The notes beneath the pieces are model-generated. The model did no database searches. It saw only the letters and a list, made by a program, of their open reading frames with translations, and had not been told where the DNA came from. Of a stretch of DNA of 64,000 nt, positions 4,227 to 62,521 are shown piece by piece. A program made the position numbers and the translations under genes. The stretch comes from an uncultured Thermotogae bacterium (GTDB lineage: Bacteria > Bipolaricaulota > Bipolaricaulia > RBG-16-55-9 > DRXL01): assembly GCA_964473325.1 (NCBI GenBank), contig CAYYOG010000001.1, positions 52,618 to 116,617 of the forward strand, in the 5' to 3' direction. Position 1 is the first letter of the stretch, and every line of letters starts with the position of its first letter.

Positions 4227-4270
4227 AACCGGGGGTAGGGTTTAAAATAAAAGCTCTGCCCCCGGTTTCG
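4227..4270 (+). terminator. intergenic hairpin (attenuator-like) between the binding-protein and permease genes
   Basis: AACCGGGGG ... CCCCCGGTT inverted repeat followed by TTTCGT. The T-tract is weak, so a partial terminator is more likely than a full one. Confidence 0.3.
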
Positions 4271-5327: not shown

Positions 5328-6352
<1,025 letters not shown>

Positions 6353-7867: not shown

Positions 7868-9202
7868 TCAAGCTGCAATATCCCTGCGATAGTGCATCCC
7901 CTCAAATCTGATCTTTTCTATCGCACTATAAGCGCGCTTGCGGGCTTCAGTCACGGAAGCTCCCAGCCCGACGACGTTGAGCACCCGTCCGCCAGCCGTC
8001 ACGATTTTGCTGTCTCTGCGAGCTGTGCCGGCATGAAAGATCAGTATATGGTCCTCACCCCGCCCTGCTGGCACCCCTCTCCCGTCTTGGTGGGCGGGAG
8101 AGGGGCCGAGGGTGAGGGCCTCAAGTCCTTCGATCACAAAGCCCTTCTCGTAGTGCTCCGGATACCCCCCCGACGCTAAGACAACACACACAGCACTGAT
8201 GGGCTTGAGCGTTGGCTCAAATCTTTCGAGCCGACGCTCTGCAATAGCCACATAGAGTTCCAAAAGAGTGAAGTCAAATCGAGGAACTAAGACCTGGGTC
8301 TCCGGGTCACCAAAGCGCACGTTATACTCTAAAACACAGGGCCCACGCTCCGTCCATATCAGCCCGAAATAGAGAATACCTTCATAGCTGAGATTCTCTT
8401 TGTGCAAGGCTGCAAACGTCGGCGCGACGATCGTTTTCACCGTCTCGTCGAGCATCTGTTCTGTCAGCCAGGGCACGGGTGAAATCGAGCCCATCCCGCC
8501 GGTATTGGGGCCGCGATCCCCGTCGAGCAGTCTCTTATAGTCTTGAGCTGTGCCCAGCAATTTCCAAGAAATCCCATCAGAAGCGACGAAGAGCGAGAAC
8601 TCCTTCCCCGCCAAAAACTCTTCGATGACGACGCGCTGCGATGCCGCGCCGAACTTTTTCGCGATTATAAAGTCTCTCAGAATCTGCTCGGCTTCGGAAT
8701 GCGTCTGGGCGATAGCGACGCCCTTGCCCGCAGCGAGGCCATCGGCCTTAATGACGATAGGGGGTGGCATGGTGCGAGCGAATGCAAGAGCTTGTTCAAA
8801 GTTCTCAAAGCTCGCATGACGCGCCGTGGGGATGCCGTACTTGTGCAGAAACGCTTTCGCCTGGACTTTGCTGCCCTCTAGGAACGATGCTCTCTGGCTA
8901 GGCGCGATAATTCTGAGATTTTCCCTCTCAAAGAGATCACGAATCCCAGCGACGATGGGGGCTTCGGGGCCGACGACAGTTAAATCTATCTTCTCTCTCT
9001 TGGCGAACTGAGCCAGCTCAGGGAGATTCTCTGGGCTAATGGGGATATTCTCTCCGAGTTGGGCCGTGCCGGCGTTGCCAGGGGCGATATAGAGTTTTGA
9101 GAGCTTAGGGGACTGTGCCAGCCCCCACGCTAAAGCGTGCTCACGTCCGCCGGAACCGATTAAGAGAACCCTCATATCTGCACCAGCGTTTTCCGTGGTC
9201 AT
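7868..9202 (-). CDS. purD: phosphoribosylamine--glycine ligase PurD (carries an in-frame repeat insertion)
   Basis: ATP-grasp PurD sequence (MRVLLIGSGGREHALAWGL). The nested-palindrome repeat at 8051-8120 contributes an extra in-frame block, LTLGPSPAHQDGRGVPAGRGED. Confidence 0.85.
   Translation of the reverse strand: MTTENAGADMRVLLIGSGGREHALAWGLAQSPKLSKLYIAPGNAGTAQLGENIPISPENLPELAQFAKREKIDLTVVGPEAPIVAGIRDLFERENLRIIAPSQRASFLEGSKVQAKAFLHKYGIPTARHASFENFEQALAFARTMPPPIVIKADGLAAGKGVAIAQTHSEAEQILRDFIIAKKFGAASQRVVIEEFLAGKEFSLFVASDGISWKLLGTAQDYKRLLDGDRGPNTGGMGSISPVPWLTEQMLDETVKTIVAPTFAALHKENLSYEGILYFGLIWTERGPCVLEYNVRFGDPETQVLVPRFDFTLLELYVAIAERRLERFEPTLKPISAVCVVLASGGYPEHYEKGFVIEGLEALTLGPSPAHQDGRGVPAGRGEDHILIFHAGTARRDSKIVTAGGRVLNVVGLGASVTEARKRAYSAIEKIRFEGMHYRRDIAA
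8051..8120. repeat. GC-rich nested-palindrome miniature repeat, copy inside purD
   Basis: GTCCTCACCCCGCCC ... CACCCCTCTCCCGT-CTTGGTGGGC-GGGAGAGGGG ... GGGTGAGGGCC. Same architecture as the copies at 23158, 23776, 24981, 30068, 30632 and 62306. Confidence 0.8.
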
Positions 9203-21371: not shown

Positions 21372-22769
21372 TCACTTCGGCAGCAGATACTCTAACGCCG
21401 GATGCTCGGCAGGGAGACTCCCCTCCGGATAGCGCGCCGTAAAGCATGACGTGCAGAAGTTCTCAGCATCACCGACACACTGCTGCAACTCTTCTACAGA
21501 GAGATAGACGACCGAGTCCGCGTTCATAAACTGCGTGATCTGGGGGATCGTCCGGCTCGATGCGACGAGCTCTTCTCGTGTGGGCATGTCGATCCCAAAG
21601 TAGCATGGCGCAATCAAGGGCGGCGAAGCAATACGCAGATGGACCTCCTTGGCACCAAATTCCCTTAACACATGCACGATCGCCCGCGACGTCGTCCCCC
21701 GCACGATCGAGTCATCCACCAAGGCTATGCGACAGCCTTGTAAGACATCCCGCAAGGGGAGAAGCTTCATGCGGACTTTGTGCACCCGCGACTCTTGATA
21801 CGGCTCGATGAAGCTTCTCCCGACGTAGTGGCTGCGGATCAGTCCAAACTCTAAGGGCTTATTGAGCTTGCGCGAGTAACCTAGCGCTGCAGGCAGCCCT
21901 GAGTCGGGCACGGGCACGACGATGTCTATCTTATGAGTCTCCTTCTCAGCCAAGCGGACGCCGCAGAGCTTTCGGAACTCATAGACGTTATGACCGAAGA
22001 GTCGGCTATCGGGCCGGGCAAAGTAAATGAGCTCAAAGACGCACTGGCGGCGCGGCTGCTTGGGGCCAAAGCGTGCCGAGTGCAGCCCAGCACGATCTAT
22101 AACTAAGACTTCGCCGGGCTCGACCTCTCGAACAAATTCTGCACCGAGAATATCGAACGCTGCTGTCTCAGAAGCGATACAGAAATCATCGCCTCGCCGT
22201 CCTAACACTAAGGGACGGAATCCGAAGGGATCGCGTGCTGCAACCAACTTGTCCCCATCGATCATCACGACCGAGTACGCCCCTAAGACTTTTGCTGTTA
22301 AAGCGGCAAACCGCTCGGGGGGGCTGGAGTCCCGAGCACGAGCATACAGATGCAATAAGCTCTCCGTATCTGAGGTGCTATTGAAATAGACGCCTTCAGC
22401 TACGAGTTCTTCGCGCAGCTGCGCGGCATTAGAAAGATTCCCATTATGAGCCATGGCGATCCAGCGTCCTTCGCGCTTGAGCACAAAGGGCTGGGCGTTC
22501 TCTGGGCGAGCGCTCTCCCCTTGAGTTGAATATCGCGTATGGGCGATCCCGATATGCCCGCGCAAGAGCGCCACACGCCCCTGGGCGAAGACGTCTTGGA
22601 CCAGTCCCAAGTCTTTATAGCAGCGTAGCTCTCTTCCGTCGGAGATCGCAAACCCCGCGGCCTCTTGCCCGCGGTGCTGCAGGGCAAACAGCCCCATCTG
22701 TAATGCGTCGGCGATCTCTGTAGACTGACTATAGACCGCAAAGATCCCGCACTCTTCCTTGAGCTTCAT
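21372..22769 (-). CDS. purF: amidophosphoribosyltransferase PurF
   Basis: Short propeptide then catalytic Cys (MKLKEECGIFAV). Ntn glutaminase domain, PRTase domain and C-terminal Fe-S cysteines present. Confidence 0.9.
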   Translation of the reverse strand: MKLKEECGIFAVYSQSTEIADALQMGLFALQHRGQEAAGFAISDGRELRCYKDLGLVQDVFAQGRVALLRGHIGIAHTRYSTQGESARPENAQPFVLKREGRWIAMAHNGNLSNAAQLREELVAEGVYFNSTSDTESLLHLYARARDSSPPERFAALTAKVLGAYSVVMIDGDKLVAARDPFGFRPLVLGRRGDDFCIASETAAFDILGAEFVREVEPGEVLVIDRAGLHSARFGPKQPRRQCVFELIYFARPDSRLFGHNVYEFRKLCGVRLAEKETHKIDIVVPVPDSGLPAALGYSRKLNKPLEFGLIRSHYVGRSFIEPYQESRVHKVRMKLLPLRDVLQGCRIALVDDSIVRGTTSRAIVHVLREFGAKEVHLRIASPPLIAPCYFGIDMPTREELVASSRTIPQITQFMNADSVVYLSVEELQQCVGDAENFCTSCFTARYPEGSLPAEHPALEYLLPK

Positions 22770-24979
22770 AGCTCTATCGCCGTCTCGTACGCGTGACGCA
22801 GCTCTGCAACGGAGACGCGCTCGCCCTTCAATTCTAGCGCATCCCCTGCAACCGTGCCCAGTTTCTGATAGGGCACCCCCGCACCCTCGAGCAGCTCTCT
22901 GAAGGCGCTTTCATGCTCCGGCGCCACGGTGATGGCAAACCGCGACGGCCATTCCCCAAAGAGCGCCTCCTCCGAAAGATCTTCAAGCGCCAAGTGTGCT
23001 CCCAGCCCACGAGCAAAGCTCATCTCGGCAAGAGCGACTAACAACCCGCCCTCAGAGACGTCATGGGCGCTCGCAAGCCATCGACGCTCGATTAACTTAA
23101 GCATCGCCTGCACCAAGCGACGCTCCAGCTCCAAGTCGGTCTTTTCTAGCTCGTTCAGGCCCTCACCCCGCCCTCCGAGGGAGAGGGGTGAGGGCCCTAA
23201 GACTTTCAGATATTCGCTGCCCCCAACCTTCCCCGAAAGCTTCCCCATCAGATAGATAAGATCGCCCTCGCGTTGGAATCCCATAGGGACTCGATGCTCT
23301 ATATCTTTGAGAAATCCCACCATCCCTACGATGGGCGTGGGATAGATCTTTCGGGTCTCAGACTGATTGTAGAAGCTGACGTTGCCCGAGACAAATGGCA
23401 GCTCAAAAGTCTTCGCAGCGTCAGCCATCCCACGGATCGTCTGCTCGAACGACCACAAGACTTCGGGATCAGTCGGGTTGGCAAAGTTCAGACAGTCCGT
23501 GATCCCTATGGGTTCAGCCCCGACGCTGACGAGATTATGAACAGCTTCGCAGACGGCGCGTATGCCCCCTTGGTAGGGGTCTAAGTAACAGTAGCGGCTG
23601 TTGCCGCCCATCGTCACAGCTAGGGCGAAGCGCTCGCCCTTGACACGCAGCAGCGCCGCGTCATGGGCTCCCGGCCCAACGACGGTGTTCGTCTGCACCA
23701 TGTGATCGTACTGCTCGTAGACCCATCTCTTGGAGCCAATGGTCGGGGAGTGGAGGAGCTGTTTGAGGAGTTCAAGGCCCTTACCCCGCCCTATCGGGCA
23801 CCCCTCTCCCGTGGGTGAGCCACGGGAGAGGGGCCAGGGGTGAGGGCCTCTCGGCTTCACTGTAAGGTCCGGCTCCGGCGCCCCGCCGACTAAGACGCTG
23901 ATGGGAATCTCGGCGATCGTTCGCCCCTCATGACGAATTCTGTAGACCCTTTCGGCGATCACTTCTCCAATAACTGCAGCTTCCAATCCCCACTTGCGAT
24001 AGATCCGTATAAATTTCTGTTCCGAGCCACTCTTGACGCAGAGCACCATGCGCTCTTGCGATTCTGATAAGAGAATCTCATAGGGGGACATGGTGGGGTC
24101 ACGCAACGGGATCTCTTCGATGTCGACAGCTATGCCGACTCCACCGCGTGAGGCCATCTCCGCCGGGGCTGTAGAGAGCCCCCCGGCACCCAGATCTTGC
24201 AGCCCGATCAGCTCTGGGAATTGACAGACCTCCAGCGTTGCTTCGATCAAAGACTTGGCGGTGAAGGGATCGCCCACTTGGACGTTGGGGCGCTTCGCTT
24301 CGGTCTCGCCCACGAGATCTTCTGAAGCGAACGTGGCCCCGTGGATCCCATCGCGCCCTGTGCGCGCTCCAACTAAGAGAATCCTGTTGCCCACCCCCTG
24401 GGCCACAGCGCGCTTGAGCTGGGATCGCTGGAGCACCCCCACACACATCACGTTGACGAGACAGTTATCAATATAAGCGTCCTCAAAGTAGACATCGCCC
24501 CCGACGGTGGGCACGCCCACGCAATTCCCATAGTGGCTGATCCCCGAGACGACGCCCGCAAAGAGCCGCTGGGACTTGGGGTCAGCAAATTCCCCAAACC
24601 GTAAAGAATCTAACAGCGCGATGGGCCGCGCCCCCATGCTCAAAATATCTCTGATAATCCCGCCAATACCCGTTGCTGCCCCGTTAAATGGCTCGACGGC
24701 CGAGGGGTGATTATGACTCTCGACCTTGAACGCCACACACCAGTTATTCTCTAATTCTACGACCCCGGCGTTCTCCCCCGGCCCCTGCAAGACCCTCTTG
24801 CCCGCCGTGGGCAGAAGCTTTAAGAATCTCTTCGAGCTCTTATAGCTGCAGTGCTCAGACCAATTGAGCGAAAACAGCCCCAACTCCAGTTCGTTGGGCT
24901 CACGCTTCAAAAGAGCACAGATCGCTTCGTATTCACTCTGCGAGAGCCCGTGCTGCAAAGCCAGCTCCAGCTTGGTCAT
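22766..24979 (-). CDS. purL: phosphoribosylformylglycinamidine synthase subunit PurL (two in-frame repeat insertions)
   Basis: Typical small-PurL start MTKLELALQHGLSQSEYEAI and AIR-synthase-related domains. The repeats at 23158-23197 and 23776-23848 read through in frame as LGGRGEGLNE and PRGPHPWPLSRGSPTGEGCPIGRGKG. Confidence 0.9.
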   Translation of the reverse strand: MTKLELALQHGLSQSEYEAICALLKREPNELELGLFSLNWSEHCSYKSSKRFLKLLPTAGKRVLQGPGENAGVVELENNWCVAFKVESHNHPSAVEPFNGAATGIGGIIRDILSMGARPIALLDSLRFGEFADPKSQRLFAGVVSGISHYGNCVGVPTVGGDVYFEDAYIDNCLVNVMCVGVLQRSQLKRAVAQGVGNRILLVGARTGRDGIHGATFASEDLVGETEAKRPNVQVGDPFTAKSLIEATLEVCQFPELIGLQDLGAGGLSTAPAEMASRGGVGIAVDIEEIPLRDPTMSPYEILLSESQERMVLCVKSGSEQKFIRIYRKWGLEAAVIGEVIAERVYRIRHEGRTIAEIPISVLVGGAPEPDLTVKPRGPHPWPLSRGSPTGEGCPIGRGKGLELLKQLLHSPTIGSKRWVYEQYDHMVQTNTVVGPGAHDAALLRVKGERFALAVTMGGNSRYCYLDPYQGGIRAVCEAVHNLVSVGAEPIGITDCLNFANPTDPEVLWSFEQTIRGMADAAKTFELPFVSGNVSFYNQSETRKIYPTPIVGMVGFLKDIEHRVPMGFQREGDLIYLMGKLSGKVGGSEYLKVLGPSPLSLGGRGEGLNELEKTDLELERRLVQAMLKLIERRWLASAHDVSEGGLLVALAEMSFARGLGAHLALEDLSEEALFGEWPSRFAITVAPEHESAFRELLEGAGVPYQKLGTVAGDALELKGERVSVAELRHAYETAIEL
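23158..23197. repeat. GC-rich nested-palindrome miniature repeat, short form, inside purL
   Basis: GGCCCTCACCCC-GCC-CTCCGAGGGAG-A-GGGGTGAGGGCC. Perfect 12-bp outer arms with an inner 4-bp stem. Confidence 0.85.
23776..23848. repeat. GC-rich nested-palindrome miniature repeat, long form, inside purL
   Basis: GGCCCTTACCCC ... CCCCTCTCCCGT-GGGTGAGCC-ACGGGAGAGGGG ... GGGGTGAGGGCC. Confidence 0.85.
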
Positions 24980-25725
24980 AGGCCCTCACCCCCGCCCTCT
25001 GTAGGGGCAGATCTATGTATCTGCCTAGAGCGAACATCCCGGTTCACCCCTACAACTGGGGTGAGGGCTTGCACCAACCCCTGAAAGATCTTCAGCCCGT
25101 CCCCAGATCCAAAGATCTTTTCACTGTTGCGCTCCGGATGGGGCATCATCCCGAAGATCGTCCCCGTCTCGTCCATAATCGCGGCGATGTTTTCGACCGA
25201 GCCGTTGGGATTCTCTCCATAATACGTCAACAGAATCTGACGGTTTCTCTTCATTCTCTCGATCGTTTCTGGAGGGGCAACGTAGCGCCCCTCCCCGTGC
25301 GCGATGGGCAACTCGATAATCTGCCCGTACTCAAAAAGATGTGTGAGCGGGGTGGCGTGGTTCTCGACGCGCAGCTTCACGGCCTTGCAGATAAATCTCT
25401 GAGAGAGATTCTTCGTGAGAGCCCCGGGGAGTAAGCCCGCTTCAGTGAGAATCTGAAAGCCATTGCAGATCCCCAGCACGATCCCGCGTTGCTTCTCCCT
25501 ATACCCTGCCAGGGCTTGGACGACCGGAGCAAACCTGGCAATCGCCCCGGCTCGCAAATAGTCCCCGTAAGAAAAGCCCCCTGGCAGCACGATCAGATCG
25601 TATCTCTCTAGATCCGTCTCGCGATACCATAAGAACTCCGTCTCGATCCCCAAGAGATCTCTTAAGACATAGTACGTATCGTGATCGCAGTTGGAGCCAG
25701 GGAAGACGACGACAGCAGCGCGCAT
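24976..25725 (-). CDS. purQ: phosphoribosylformylglycinamidine synthase glutaminase subunit PurQ (C-terminus extended through a repeat copy)
   Basis: Class-I glutamine amidotransferase (MRAAVVVFPGSNCD ... ICNGFQIL ... MPHPER). The last ~30 codons (VGVNRDVRSRQIHRSAPTEGGGEGL) are encoded by the repeat at 24981-25067. The stop overlaps the purL ATG. Confidence 0.85.
   Translation of the reverse strand: MRAAVVVFPGSNCDHDTYYVLRDLLGIETEFLWYRETDLERYDLIVLPGGFSYGDYLRAGAIARFAPVVQALAGYREKQRGIVLGICNGFQILTEAGLLPGALTKNLSQRFICKAVKLRVENHATPLTHLFEYGQIIELPIAHGEGRYVAPPETIERMKRNRQILLTYYGENPNGSVENIAAIMDETGTIFGMMPHPERNSEKIFGSGDGLKIFQGLVQALTPVVGVNRDVRSRQIHRSAPTEGGGEGL
24981..25067. repeat. GC-rich miniature repeat, degenerate long copy at the purQ/purL junction
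   Basis: GGCCCTCACCCCCGCCCTCTGTAGGGGC ... CACCCCTACAACTGGGGTGAGGGC. The outer arms are retained. Confidence 0.7.
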
Positions 25726-25979
25726 CAGAGCTCCTCCAGCTCGATAGAGTACTTTTCGATGACGGGGTTGGCTAAGAATTTCTGGGCGACTTCCGCGACC
25801 CTTTCGCGGGCCTGCTGGGCGTTCAGCGCCTTCAGCTTAAATTTTATCACTTTGCCCACGCGTGTCTGCGCGATGTTCTTCAGACCCAGCTCGATGAGGG
25901 CGCGCTCAACCGCTTGCCCTTGGGGGTCTAAGAGCTCCGCTTTGGGTTCGACGAGCACCCGCACGAGAAACTCTTTCAT
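25725..25979 (-). CDS. purS: phosphoribosylformylglycinamidine synthase subunit PurS
   Basis: 84 aa. MKEFLVRVLVEPKAELLDPQGQAVERALIELGL is canonical PurS. Confidence 0.85.
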   Translation of the reverse strand: MKEFLVRVLVEPKAELLDPQGQAVERALIELGLKNIAQTRVGKVIKFKLKALNAQQARERVAEVAQKFLANPVIEKYSIELEEL

Positions 25980-30058: not shown

Positions 30059-30067
30059 CCCATAGCA

Positions 30068-30137
30068 GTCCTCATCCCCGATCCCTCTCCCGTCTGCACG
30101 GACGGGAGAGGGGTGCCCGATAGGGCGGGGTGAGGGC
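30068..30137. repeat. GC-rich nested-palindrome miniature repeat at the 5' end of the SARP-like regulator
   Basis: CCTCATCCCC ... CCCTCTCCCGT-CTGCACGG-ACGGGAGAGGGG ... GGCGGGGTGAGGGC. Confidence 0.75.
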
Positions 30138-30267
30138 TTCGATTATAGCCGTGCTCGTCTCTCTAGACAAGTCTGCAAAGTCCTCACTTTGCGCACACTT
30201 TGCAAGGGGGTGCTAGACTCCAGCCGTCGAACATCAACACAAGCTTAATAAAGGAGGTTGATCGAAG

Positions 30268-30621
30268 ATGTTCGTCAAAATGACAGTCGTGCGGACGGTC
30301 GTGGCGGTTCTGGCCCTTGGGGTGCTGGGGACGGTCATGGTGGGGACGGCGCAACAGCCGACAAACCCCGCGGATATCGCGAGCGCCTTGGTCGCGTACT
30401 ATAAGATCGGCAATCGGCCTGCGAGCATCACCGTTGCCGAGATCGAGCAGCGCATCGCGTACTTCCCGGACTTTGGGGAGGGCACGGTCACAGCGCTCAA
30501 GAAGGCCGCGCCCATCGAGACGGTGAGCAAGCTTGTAGGGCTGAAGAACAGCCGAGGGAAAAATCTGCTCTCACAGAAGCAGATTATTCTGCTCTTGACG
30601 TTCTATAACCTGAAGCCGTAG
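30268..30621 (+). CDS. small secreted hypothetical protein
   Basis: AGGAGG RBS 8 nt upstream. Signal peptide MFVKMTVVRTVVAVLALGVLGTVMVGTAQQ. 117 aa. Confidence 0.45.
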   Translation: MFVKMTVVRTVVAVLALGVLGTVMVGTAQQPTNPADIASALVAYYKIGNRPASITVAEIEQRIAYFPDFGEGTVTALKKAAPIETVSKLVGLKNSRGKNLLSQKQIILLLTFYNLKP

Positions 30622-30631
30622 CCGCGCCGGT

Positions 30632-30700
30632 GGCCCTCACCCCGCCCGTAGGGGTGCATGGCCGTGCGCCCCTACGGGAGAGGGGCTGGGGGAGAGGGCC
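30632..30700. repeat. GC-rich nested-palindrome miniature repeat, intergenic copy between convergent genes
   Basis: GGCCCTCACCCCGCCC-GTAGGGGTGCATGGCCGTGCGCCCCTAC-GGGAGAGGGGCTGGGGGAGAGGGCC. Lies between the 3' ends of 30268-30621 (+) and 30702-31190 (-), so it may act as a bidirectional terminator. Confidence 0.75.
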
Positions 30701-60382: not shown

Positions 60383-62521
60383 TTATTTGAGCAGAATAAA
60401 TTTGCCAAGCTTTCTCTGAATGATTTGTCCGTCTTTGATGATCTCGATGACGTAGAGATAGACGCCGTTGGCGCGACGATGCGGGCGCCATTGGAGCGCC
60501 GCCCCTGCACGTACTGTGTCCTCGAAGAGCTTAGCCCCACGCAGATCATAAATATATAGTCGAGCCATCTCGACGGGCTCTGAAAGCTGCACGCGCACGG
60601 CGTCCCGCCGATGCACGAGCGCCACAGTTTCCGTAGAAGACTCTATGGTAATCGCGTTATCGCCCTCGATAGTGATATTATTGACCGTACCCGACCAGCG
60701 ATAGACTCCTGGCTGCGTCGTATCAGGCACGCGCAGCTCATACGTGAACGATTTTGTTTCGCTAGGGTGGACGATGGGCCAGGTGAACGAAACGGGAGGG
60801 AGGCCCCACGGGAGCTCCTCACGCAGATTCAAGCCCCCGAAAAGCCCCATGGGCATCGTCGCTTTGATAGTGACTCTGACGAGATCGCCAGGCTTTGCGT
60901 GCTTGGGTGAGATTGTGCGCTGGACTTGTATTGTTCCGAGCGAGAGGTCGAGCCTGCCCGCGCCGTAGATGTTGTCTTTGCCCGGAACGCCCATGTCTAT
61001 CGCTTGAGTTTCAAGGGCACGTTGAAGCTGCTCAGCTGTCCACTCTGGGTGCTGAGAGAGCAAGAGCGCTGCGGCCCCAGCGACGTGCGGCGCCGATGCT
61101 GATGTCCCGGAAAAGTACGTGAGCGCGAAGCTCGAGACGCCATCCGGTCCCATGATATCAGGCTTGATACGCCCATCACTTGTGGGCCCTTGAGAACTAA
61201 ACGGCTCCTGGGGGCCGGTCTTCCAGCTGCGCACGCTGATTGCCCCAACAGCGAAAGCCCCCCGTGCGTCTGCTGGAGTGAGAATGCTCCCTTCAGGAAT
61301 ATTGGGATCGATAGCTTGCTGGCTGAGATTGAAGATTTTTAGTCCAATGTTCGTCCGAGAGATGCGGCGGGCGAGCACCCGCGCGCGATATGCCCCCGGC
61401 GCCCACGCAACGTATTCTATTTGCTCGGTCGGCTCTTCGGAACCCGTTTGGTAGTTTTGCGAGCTGGCAACCAAGCGCCCTTGTGCGTCGTAGAGAAAGA
61501 GATCGAAGTCTTGCGCCGTGCGTGGCCAATCGTCCCACGTCAGATAGAGCTCAATCGAGCCAGGGAAGTCAGCTTTGATTAAGAGTTCTTCTCTGCCGGG
61601 GGCAAACTCGAGCCACCCATCATAGTCTCTATCACTGAAAGAGCCCATCCAATGGCTCTGGGCGTGGTTACCTGCCGCGTTAACCCACAAAATTCCGTGG
61701 GCGCGCGCTCGATCTGCAAGCCCCGCGACGAATCCCTTGCCATCGCCGAAGTTGGCGTTGGCCACGCCCACAGAATAGTTAATAATATGAACTCCCTGAG
61801 CAATGGCATCATCAACAGCGTTGGCCAGATCGATCTCGTCAGCAACTTTTTTGAGATAGAGCCAAGCTTTCGGAGCCATCGCATGAATGATTTCCGTGAC
61901 GCCGGTACCGTGAGAAGTTCCTGTCTCTAAGCCTTCCCCGGTATAGTCTTGCTCATCGACGATGACGTCGGGATTGATAATTTTAGATTTTTTCGCGCGG
62001 CTGAGCTGAGCAAAACCTAAGTCTATCACAGCGATCTTGACGTTCTGTCCACGCCAGCCTGATCCTTGAAGCAAAAGCGTCCCAGTGGGCACGACCCCTT
62101 CGCTGGAGCGCGAGCCTAAAGCGACGAGCGCCCGAGGGCGACGAATGAACGAGATCCCCGGCACGCTCTCAGCTAATGCTCTGAGATTTTCTGGGGGAAC
62201 CCGCACGCGATAGAGATTTTCTGCGCAGGCTTCGACATAAGAACCAAAGGGCGCTAAGAGTGTCTCGTCCAAAGGGCGCTCACTCTCGATAATAACGGTG
62301 ATGGTCCCCACCCCTGACCCTTCTCCCGTGGGTGAGCCACGGGAGGGGGACAGCGCAGCCGGCGTGAGGGCCGCCCTAGCAAGCAACCCCGTCTCAATCT
62401 TGGGATGATAGACCGACGGCTTTGGAGGAACAGCCCAATCGCCGGGAAATCCTGAATAAGCCAACCCAATCAAGAAAAACGAAAGAACTCCTAGAATGAA
62501 AAGCAGATGCGACCTTCGCAT
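60383..62521 (-). CDS. S8-family subtilisin-like serine peptidase with a C-terminal sorting-tail-like domain
   Basis: Signal peptide. Catalytic Asp (AVIDLGF), His (HGTGVTEIIHA) and Ser (GTSASAPHVAGAAALL). C-terminal ~90 aa (LYIYDLRGAKL ... NGVYLYVIEI ... KLGKFILLK) resembles Por/T9SS-type or FlgD-Ig-like tails. In-frame repeat insertion at 62306-62351. Confidence 0.7.
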   Translation of the reverse strand: MRRSHLLFILGVLSFFLIGLAYSGFPGDWAVPPKPSVYHPKIETGLLARAALTPAALSPSRGSPTGEGSGVGTITVIIESERPLDETLLAPFGSYVEACAENLYRVRVPPENLRALAESVPGISFIRRPRALVALGSRSSEGVVPTGTLLLQGSGWRGQNVKIAVIDLGFAQLSRAKKSKIINPDVIVDEQDYTGEGLETGTSHGTGVTEIIHAMAPKAWLYLKKVADEIDLANAVDDAIAQGVHIINYSVGVANANFGDGKGFVAGLADRARAHGILWVNAAGNHAQSHWMGSFSDRDYDGWLEFAPGREELLIKADFPGSIELYLTWDDWPRTAQDFDLFLYDAQGRLVASSQNYQTGSEEPTEQIEYVAWAPGAYRARVLARRISRTNIGLKIFNLSQQAIDPNIPEGSILTPADARGAFAVGAISVRSWKTGPQEPFSSQGPTSDGRIKPDIMGPDGVSSFALTYFSGTSASAPHVAGAAALLLSQHPEWTAEQLQRALETQAIDMGVPGKDNIYGAGRLDLSLGTIQVQRTISPKHAKPGDLVRVTIKATMPMGLFGGLNLREELPWGLPPVSFTWPIVHPSETKSFTYELRVPDTTQPGVYRWSGTVNNITIEGDNAITIESSTETVALVHRRDAVRVQLSEPVEMARLYIYDLRGAKLFEDTVRAGAALQWRPHRRANGVYLYVIEIIKDGQIIQRKLGKFILLK
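62306..62351. repeat. GC-rich miniature repeat (inner stem-loop form) inside the S8 peptidase
   Basis: CCCCACCCCTGACCCTTCTCCCGT-GGGTGAGCC-ACGGGAGGGGGAC. The same inner hairpin as the 23776 copy. Encodes SRGSPTGEGSG in frame. Confidence 0.75.

Follow-up and report, generated by a model that had tools for sequence, protein, structure and literature searches.

The stretch analyzed here (the window) comprises 64,000 nucleotides of an uncultured Thermotogae bacterium, placed in the Bipolaricaulota by GTDB (assembly GCA_964473325.1, contig CAYYOG010000001.1, positions 52,618 to 116,617 of the forward strand). On its minus strand, purS (25725-25979), purQ (24976-25725), purL (22766-24979) and purF (21372-22769) form one operon. 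purS and purF were assigned from their open reading frames (ORFs) and equivalog-level NCBIfam scores, and purQ likewise from ORF and NCBIfam profile; the purQ stop overlaps the purL start (ATGA). purL codes for the PurL subunit of phosphoribosylformylglycinamidine (FGAM) synthase and contains two copies of a GC-rich palindromic repeat, one of 73 bp at 23776-23848 and one of 40 bp at 23158-23197, both on the minus strand. The original prediction, made from the sequence of the window, that both copies lie within the purL frame and are read straight through was borne out by the ORF, the repeat arms and the coordinates: the frame is uninterrupted over 737 codons, without stop or frameshift, and the gene is not split. 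PurL scores 941 bits against the NCBIfam PurL equivalog (cutoff 648) and carries the Pfam domains FGAR-AT_linker, AIRS and AIRS_C. Its nearest homologs bear Bipolaricaulota/Acetothermia names.

The repeat is a nested palindrome, non-autonomous and about 80% G+C; copies measure 60-73 bp, and variants reach about 90 bp. Terminal inverted repeats of 11-13 bp, (A)GGCCCTCACCCC...GGGGTGAGGGCC(T), enclose two hairpins: an inner one, CCCCTCTCCC(GT..)-loop-(..AC)GGGAGAGGGG, and a small one to the side, GCCC-N4-GGGC. The consensus of aligned copies is GCCCTCACCCC-N3-CCCCTCTCCCGT-loop-ACGGGAGAGGGG-T-GCCC-N4-GGGC-GGGGTGAGGGC, in which the terminal palindrome is lengthened by another G/C and often also by A/T. 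As a single strand, the element is predicted to fold into a Y-shaped three-way junction of a terminal stem, an inner hairpin of 14-15 bp and a side hairpin of 4 bp; because the side hairpin makes it asymmetric, the element has an orientation. In the 40-bp copy, the arms GGCCCTCACCCC and GGGGTGAGGGCC (23158-23169 and 23185-23196) are complementary at 12 of 12 positions with 15 nt between them. The 73-bp copy (nhmmer E=9e-17) has the same arms, with one mismatch, around a perfect 14-bp inner palindrome, and its RNA folds into the Y shape at -61.9 kcal/mol (z = -7.5). An 11-nt arm motif occurs 14 times in the window, where 1.44 occurrences are expected, and none of 100 shuffles reached 14. Across 30 copies from the window and other contigs, 98.4% of cells are paired, and compensatory changes are seen at the two apical pairs of the inner stem (CG 12, AU 10, GC 5); since the search pattern had fixed the 3′ half in most of these copies, only the 5′ half and the apex are informative for covariation. 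Rfam searches (a window scan at the gathering threshold and an E-value scan of eight loci) returned only sub-threshold generic miRNA hairpin models. Four or more G-runs occur in each half of the element (GGG AGA GGGG ... GGG C GGGG TGA GGG; for instance at 23776-23848), so that the right half on one strand and the left half on the other contain a formal G-quadruplex motif.

The 40-bp copy lies in the C-terminal AIRS_C half of PurL (aa 595-607, GPSPLSLGGRGEG), at a position here called site 2. DNA of orthologous loci (numbered with L, related PurL proteins with P) was fetched and aligned in order to compare empty and filled alleles. The empty allele, found in L001 and L126, reads GTCTT-CTATGGGGAGATCGGGGGC-GAGCTG and codes for V-F-Y-G-E-I-G-G-E-L. 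Site 2 is filled at the same place, in the same orientation and in the same frame in the window, L125, L002 and L003; the copy measures 68 bp in L002, 66 bp in L003 and 40 bp in the window, where DNA on both sides of the inner hairpin has been lost. Judging from these alignments, the 40-bp copy appears to have arisen from a 66-68-bp element by internal deletion. With its junctions included, it turned 19 nt into 46 nt and 7 residues into 16 (net +27 nt, +9 aa), and the ancestral FYGEIGG was replaced; hence it is not the plain insertion that had been proposed. The Thermus PurL (3VIU) shows a nine-residue gap at this place, and almost all of 56 orthologs have nothing inserted there. The ortholog alignment, which had been suggested as a check, thus finds site 2 to be lineage-specific, with the DNA of its empty allele recovered. 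We infer that the 40-bp copy is an old insertion common to relatives, whose interior has since been lost by deletions and which now amounts to nine additional residues in a loop. The PurL sequences P0002, in which site 2 is filled, and P0004 (L126), in which it is empty, are 93% identical sisters; nucleotide identity between the two is 92-95% but falls to 75-89% around and after site 2, a pattern in the sequence that suggests allelic recombination rather than independent insertion.

The 73-bp copy (aa 378-401, GPHPWPLSRGSPTGEGCPIGRGKG) sits in the linker between the two AIRS/AIRS_C halves of PurL. This inter-domain linker exists in every PurL and is unconserved everywhere, Thermus included. 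At about the same place, a diverged copy is present in L003 and unrelated sequence in L001. As the linker is already variable everywhere, the copy occupies it and partly substitutes for it, and is no pure addition. Consequently, the view that both segments are foreign to conserved PurL holds for site 2, which is empty in Thermus and most orthologs, but not in full for the linker copy (G378-G401). The latter would seem to be comparatively recent and intact. Both peptides originally named as additions are present in the translation, at aa 376 and 601; however, LGGRGEGLNE is the second half of the 40-bp peptide (G595-G607) plus flanking residues. The predicted peptides across the copy junctions read VLGPSPLSLGGR and, for the linker, GSPTGEGCPIGR. 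In L002, the purL linker (about 6110-6200) holds a C/G-tract palindrome of another family (CCCCTCCCCTAAAGAGGGAGGGG, CCCCCTTCCCTTTAGGGAAGGGGG), which is in frame in P0002 and P0004.

The original prediction noted only these two copies and missed a third at the purQ/purL junction, as well as in-frame copies in purD and in an S8 peptidase gene. PurQ is 249 aa long in the window and 223 aa in L001 and L003, and the NCBIfam PurQ profile stops at residue 220. A copy of 89 bp belonging to a subfamily (24981-25069, minus strand; fold -50.6 kcal/mol) forms the last 26 codons of purQ, i.e., a C-terminal tail of 26 aa. It displaces the ancestral AGGAAGTTCTTGT before the purL ATG, which is the Shine-Dalgarno region, with a net gain of 78 nt and with the ATGA overlap kept. 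The ancestral purL Shine-Dalgarno sequence at this junction is AGGAAG/AGGAGG; the sole similar sequence left at 24976-25075 is the GGTGAGGG arm of the element, which lies within the -50.6 kcal/mol hairpin. Initiation of purL therefore probably depends on coupling to purQ termination via the ATGA overlap. The junction is also filled in L002 and L126, and in L002 a TGA within the terminal repeat serves as the purQ stop.

In total, the window contains eight repeat copies, five of them in translated frames. Besides the three described, a 71-bp copy (8050-8120, minus strand) lies in frame in purD (7868-9202), where it is read as ALTLGPSPAHQDGRGVPAGRGED; in the alignment with the Aquifex PurD structure 2YW2, a gap of 17 aa in the Aquifex sequence coincides exactly with the repeat loop. 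An S8 peptidase (60383-62521; Pfam Peptidase_S8) has a diverged copy of 70 bp (62303-62372, minus strand) in frame near its N-terminus. An intergenic full-length copy (30066-30139, plus strand; fold -57.9 kcal/mol) is found at the same orthologous place in L125 and L126, and an intergenic subfamily copy (30632-30700, minus strand) lies between convergent ORFs. These two intergenic copies bracket an ORF of 117 aa (30268-30621) without Pfam match, and the arrangement is kept in L125 and L126. Purine-biosynthesis genes hold four of the five translated copies (purD, purQ and purL twice) and make up an estimated 13% or so of the coding DNA; this clustering may reflect chance, local hopping or tolerance of these proteins. 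Other inverted repeats of the window (at 4227, 54719, 14093, 11605 and 41808) are terminator-like hairpins or chance matches and were rejected as copies of the element. L125 is an independent assembly with a purL 99.5% identical to that of the window; it has both purL copies, which are thus not assembly artefacts.

To see where the peptides fall in the protein, PurL was modeled with AlphaFold2 on 61 orthologs. The model reaches a mean predicted local distance difference test (pLDDT) score of 91 and a predicted template modeling (pTM) score of 0.92. Only three segments fall below a pLDDT of 50, namely 385-398, 425-429 and 597-606, and the first and third are inside the repeat peptides. In the 61-sequence alignment, the window PurL has the shared residue at all invariant columns. 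The expectation that the peptides are tolerated as loops is thereby upheld by the model, which places both in low-confidence loops of a predicted, confident fold. Between the window and L125, purL differs at 11 nucleotides, two of which lie within the 113 nt of repeat and are both missense (W382R, P596L), which suggests relaxed constraint inside the repeats.

The element is easily read through. In translations of the consensus, a fixed stop occurs in one frame per strand only, the TGA of GGGGTGAGGG, and all other stops depend on variable loops. Most frames are open because the element is GC-rich, and the resulting peptides are rich in Gly, Pro, Ser and Arg. Translated copies are entered in different frames (GPHP, ALTP, PSP) and lie in both orientations, so no single frame is adapted to coding. 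A core length of 2 mod 3 was found in none of 18 copies deep inside ORFs vs. 8 of 23 intergenic copies, a pattern consistent with a post-insertion frame filter.

Close PurL orthologs (73-82% identical) vary in length from 712 to 778 aa. Lineage-specific inserts occur at six or more sites, i.e., after residues 132, 254, 583 and 594, in the linker and at the C-terminus, and the peptides are mostly Pro/Gly/Ser/Arg-rich and repeat-like; DNA confirms a repeat origin only for site 2, for the linker, for the purQ junction and, in L002, for the purL C-terminus. A hot spot follows residue 132, past the RFGE motif, where P0004, P0019 and P0022-P0049 have long inserts (NLTRSLSPHPNPLRKRRGNLTPPLSA...SACGEGQGEVWPGERS) and the window is empty. 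Elsewhere in the class, a full copy in the Bipolaricaulia metagenome-assembled genome (MAG) JBKBIX01 (L031, 6592-6665) lies between a putative prfA (release factor 1, read from sequence) and a convergent gene; it begins within the TAG stop of the putative prfA (TAGGCCCTCACC), a placement at a gene end.

Two scans covered sequences beyond the clade. Species-representative genomes were searched for the exact half-module GGGAGAGGGG-N2-16-GGGGTGAGGGC, which gave at least 120 matches. The hosts among the matches listed belong to Chloroflexota, Armatimonadota, Acidobacteriota, Cyanobacteria, Planctomycetota, Gemmatimonadota, Xanthomonadales, Burkholderiales and others. The spacer is 3 nt long in 93 of 155 matches listed, and 16 palindromic pairs of 51-197 bp are present among them; given this spacer preference and the palindromic pairs, chance does not explain the half-module matches. 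The full Y-shaped form was found in named Bipolaricaulia and Chloroflexota MAGs. On contigs of Anaerolineales and Caldilineales (L038, 724-789; L073, 36-149), the half-module, consisting of inner hairpin and GGGGTGAGGGC, forms head-to-tail tandem arrays with a period of 42-45 bp. The module is in frame in a leucyl-tRNA synthetase-like translation of a Panacagrimonas MAG (L071; ...STASGRGAGGEGL...) and in an ArnT-like membrane glycosyltransferase translation of a Chloroflexota MAG (L027; ...LTLPFGHPSPEIGRGAGVRA...).

The second scan searched metagenomes with the specific right half and yielded at least 119 loci. By naive gene calling, 42% of these copies are intergenic, 18% lie over a gene end, 13% near an end and 27% deep in ORFs, vs. 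10, 9, 17 and 65%, respectively, for random positions. Nine of ten deep host ORFs tested are bona fide genes, coding for an aconitase, a glutamate-synthase-like protein, a Mur-ligase/FolC-like protein, a hydantoinase/oxoprolinase, a non-ribosomal peptide synthetase, a restriction-modification methylase, a GH116 protein, an MMPL protein and a PEGA protein. In Chloroflexota and cyanobacteria, the Y-shaped element is almost the same in sequence and is likewise in frame, with aconitase, the peptide synthetase and oxoprolinase among the genes concerned. In the oxoprolinase, which is cyanobacterial, the copy occupies a hypervariable loop that is minimal in many orthologs. About 17 of the loci listed belong to a single assembly (41-49% G+C; 1-2 HIP1 sites per kb), whose best protein homologs are all cyanobacterial; the cyanobacterial host of the near-identical element has 46% G+C. 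On the JAESGS cyanobacterial contigs (for example L142, L160, L161, L167, L199, L242), copies are found inside a second, outer palindromic flank (GAAATCCA...AAACCAGGT), which represents either nested repeats or a palindromic target site. A cyanobacterial origin of the window itself, considered for its GCGATCGC-like palindrome, was ruled out by the PurL homologs and by a HIP1 density of 0.03 per kb.

Based on these results, we consider it quite likely that the purL segments are copies of a mobile-type palindromic repeat tolerated in frame. Copies have inserted all over this Bipolaricaulota genome. Those persisting inside genes have an open frame and a length change that is a multiple of three, and they occupy a permissive place such as a hypervariable linker, a putative surface loop or a terminus, where they would be translated into Gly/Pro/Ser/Arg-rich, apparently disordered peptides. 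The original prediction is supported as essentially right, and the wider cross-phylum pattern is the more interesting part. With more reserve, since we hold it to be somewhat less probable than its opposite, we propose that one Y-shaped element (GCCCTCACCCC-N3-CCCCTCTCCC...GGGAGAGGGG-TGCCC-N4-GGGC-GGGGTGAGGGC) is common to Bipolaricaulota, Chloroflexota and Cyanobacteria, with the half-module in many more phyla. It might have spread horizontally or be held constant by a conserved single-strand-DNA enzyme, and could act as a general generator of disordered loops and tails in conserved enzymes, in the manner of Rickettsia palindromic elements (RPEs) but across phyla.

Several observations weigh against the interpretation as a mobile repeat translated in frame. 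Although the element boundaries are sharp, no target-site duplication was found at 61 unique copies, nor a flank consensus beyond ±1 nt. Around some 280 copies (about 2 Mb), a search for a linked transposase found none; it used phmmer with an approximate Escherichia coli bait sequence of a tyrosine transposase associated with repetitive extragenic palindromic (REP) sequences (RAYT), regular expressions for HUH motifs, and the ORFs between inverted copies in L059 and L028. There, pairs of copies 3-4 kb apart flank ordinary genes. The search gave a single RAYT-like fragment (L095), at a distance of 2.4 kb from a module and not flanked by it. With neither target duplication nor target motif nor linked transposase, the case for mobility comes from the distribution of copies only. 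Further, the element has taken the place of 13-19 nt both at purL site 2 and at the purQ junction, the two sites for which an empty allele could be compared; simple transposition does not predict this. The filled site 2 of P0002 next to its empty sister P0004 requires recombination or repeated insertion. L125 has the same set of repeat copies at the same places as the window, so that the comparison of 99.5% identical strains lends no support to current activity. Finally, translation of the copies is deduced at the sequence level, from frame preservation and the absence of stops. Sharp ends, the lack of target duplication and conserved hairpins together suggest, by analogy, a single-strand-DNA mechanism of the HUH/Y1 type (RAYT- or TIRYT-like) acting in trans.

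The best surviving alternative is that the hairpins are kept for a role as nucleic acid, i.e., ribosome pausing between the PurL halves for folding, mRNA stabilization, purQ-purL coupling or regulation by G-quadruplex or hairpin, with the peptides as a by-product. The structure is indeed maintained with compensatory changes and is extremely stable (-50 to -62 kcal/mol); one copy falls precisely on the domain-linker boundary and another precisely on the purQ/purL junction, where the Shine-Dalgarno sequence is replaced and ATGA kept. The enrichment of the family at gene ends and in intergenic DNA (42% vs. 10% of random positions, at least 119 loci) and the four or more G-runs per half would also agree with such a role. 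Nevertheless, the site-2 copy is without its inner hairpin, terminal pairing is broken in one strain, close relatives that share the operon have empty sites, and copy positions differ between lineages. Moreover, conserved hairpins are equally expected if a structure-specific enzyme mobilizes the element. We therefore regard a maintained nucleic-acid role as unlikely. It is very improbable that purL is decaying or non-functional, or that the copies are removed before translation like introns or inteins. Nothing direct speaks for this, except that strong hairpins in an ORF might be expected to be harmful. However, the ORF is intact, the residues at invariant columns are the shared ones and the fold is confident. 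Length changes are multiples of three and free of stops, neither of which would be needed upon excision; no Rfam intron or ribozyme match and no intein-sized or intein-like sequence was found. That the segments are native variable loops of PurL, GC-rich and self-complementary by chance, hardly deserves credence: the linker is indeed variable and of similar length in all PurLs, including Thermus, but the same sharp-ended 60-73-bp sequence recurs in unrelated genes and in intergenic DNA within the window and elsewhere, site 2 has an orthologous empty allele and the arm motif is about ten-fold over chance.

If the reading as a tolerated mobile-type repeat is true, conserved proteins recurrently gain new surface loops, linkers and C-terminal tails from small hairpin repeats, and such gains can be dated. 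In-frame colonization of genes by selfish palindromes has so far been treated largely as a curiosity of Rickettsia, and an uncultivated phylum now shows the same behavior, with several sites affected in a single essential enzyme. Copies inflate the length variation of orthologs (PurL from 712 to 778 aa in one clade), can mislead alignments and gene callers, and place hairpins of -50 to -62 kcal/mol in coding mRNAs. Open-access text, searched by organism, DNA string and peptide string, yielded no published description of the element; the GGGGWSAS motif treated below was the one lead.

Within each RPE family, a single frame is used and the encoded peptide is conserved. RPEs measure about 100-150 bp and are known from Rickettsia only (PMC10969869); they are found in frame in many unrelated housekeeping genes, in loops compatible with the fold (Ogata et al., 2000, summarized in PMC10969869). 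Similarly, the present element is in frame in purL (twice), purQ, purD and the S8 peptidase gene, and its purL peptides fall in low-pLDDT loops of a confident model. In contrast, it is 60-73 bp long with about 80% G+C, uses several frames and both orientations, is mostly intergenic and occurs across phyla. By this analogy, it would be an RPE analogue rather than a member, set apart by its host (Bipolaricaulota) and from the published description by size and composition. The comparison with Rickettsia made at the outset is thus apt for the behavior; the expectation that such behavior is unusual is not, given six or more PurL sites in the clade and occurrences in other phyla.

REP/REPIN sequences, mobilized by RAYT, are GC-rich hairpins, mainly extragenic and sometimes intragenic, without target duplication (Di Nocera et al., 2013, PMC3733652), all of which applies to the element. 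It is also high-copy and largely extragenic as REPs are (42% intergenic plus 18% at gene ends among at least 119 loci; eight copies per 64 kb). In REPs, the single-stranded hairpin is recognized by a trans-acting HUH enzyme (PMC3733652), and by analogy such an enzyme is plausible here. Unlike REPs, the main family is without a 5′ GTAG or CGTC tag; it ends in GCCCTCACCCC/GGGGTGAGGGC, and GTAG occurs only inside the inner stem of some variants. Further, REPs are simple stem-loops of 20-40 bp, whereas the element forms a three-way junction, has long terminal inverted repeats and shows no RAYT nearby in the loci searched. Terminal inverted repeats flanking RAYT-like TIRYT genes share the motif GGGGWSAS (PMC3733652), which the element arm GGGGTGAG fits, a resemblance to the published motif at motif level only. 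TIRYT hosts are Acidobacteria and Stenotrophomonas (PMC3733652), and a class 3 HUH group occurs mainly in Planctomycetes, Acidobacteria and Proteobacteria (PMC6006769); these phyla overlap with those among the half-module matches listed. No TIRYT gene flanked by the element was found in the small sample of loci searched.

MITEs, or miniature inverted-repeat transposable elements, can also be intragenic in bacteria, as shown by ERIC, Correia and the Coxiella QMITE (PMC10969869, PMC5896051). The element is like them in being short (60-89 bp) and non-coding, in its terminal repeats of 11-13 bp and in its occasional in-frame fusions. It differs by the missing target-site duplication and the partly replaced target, and no parent insertion sequence with matching ends was found in the loci searched. 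Thus, the element lacks both the target duplication of MITEs and the GTAG/CGTC tag of REPs. What sets it apart from RPEs, REPs and MITEs alike is the three-way junction, together with a near-identical sequence across phyla of very different base composition.

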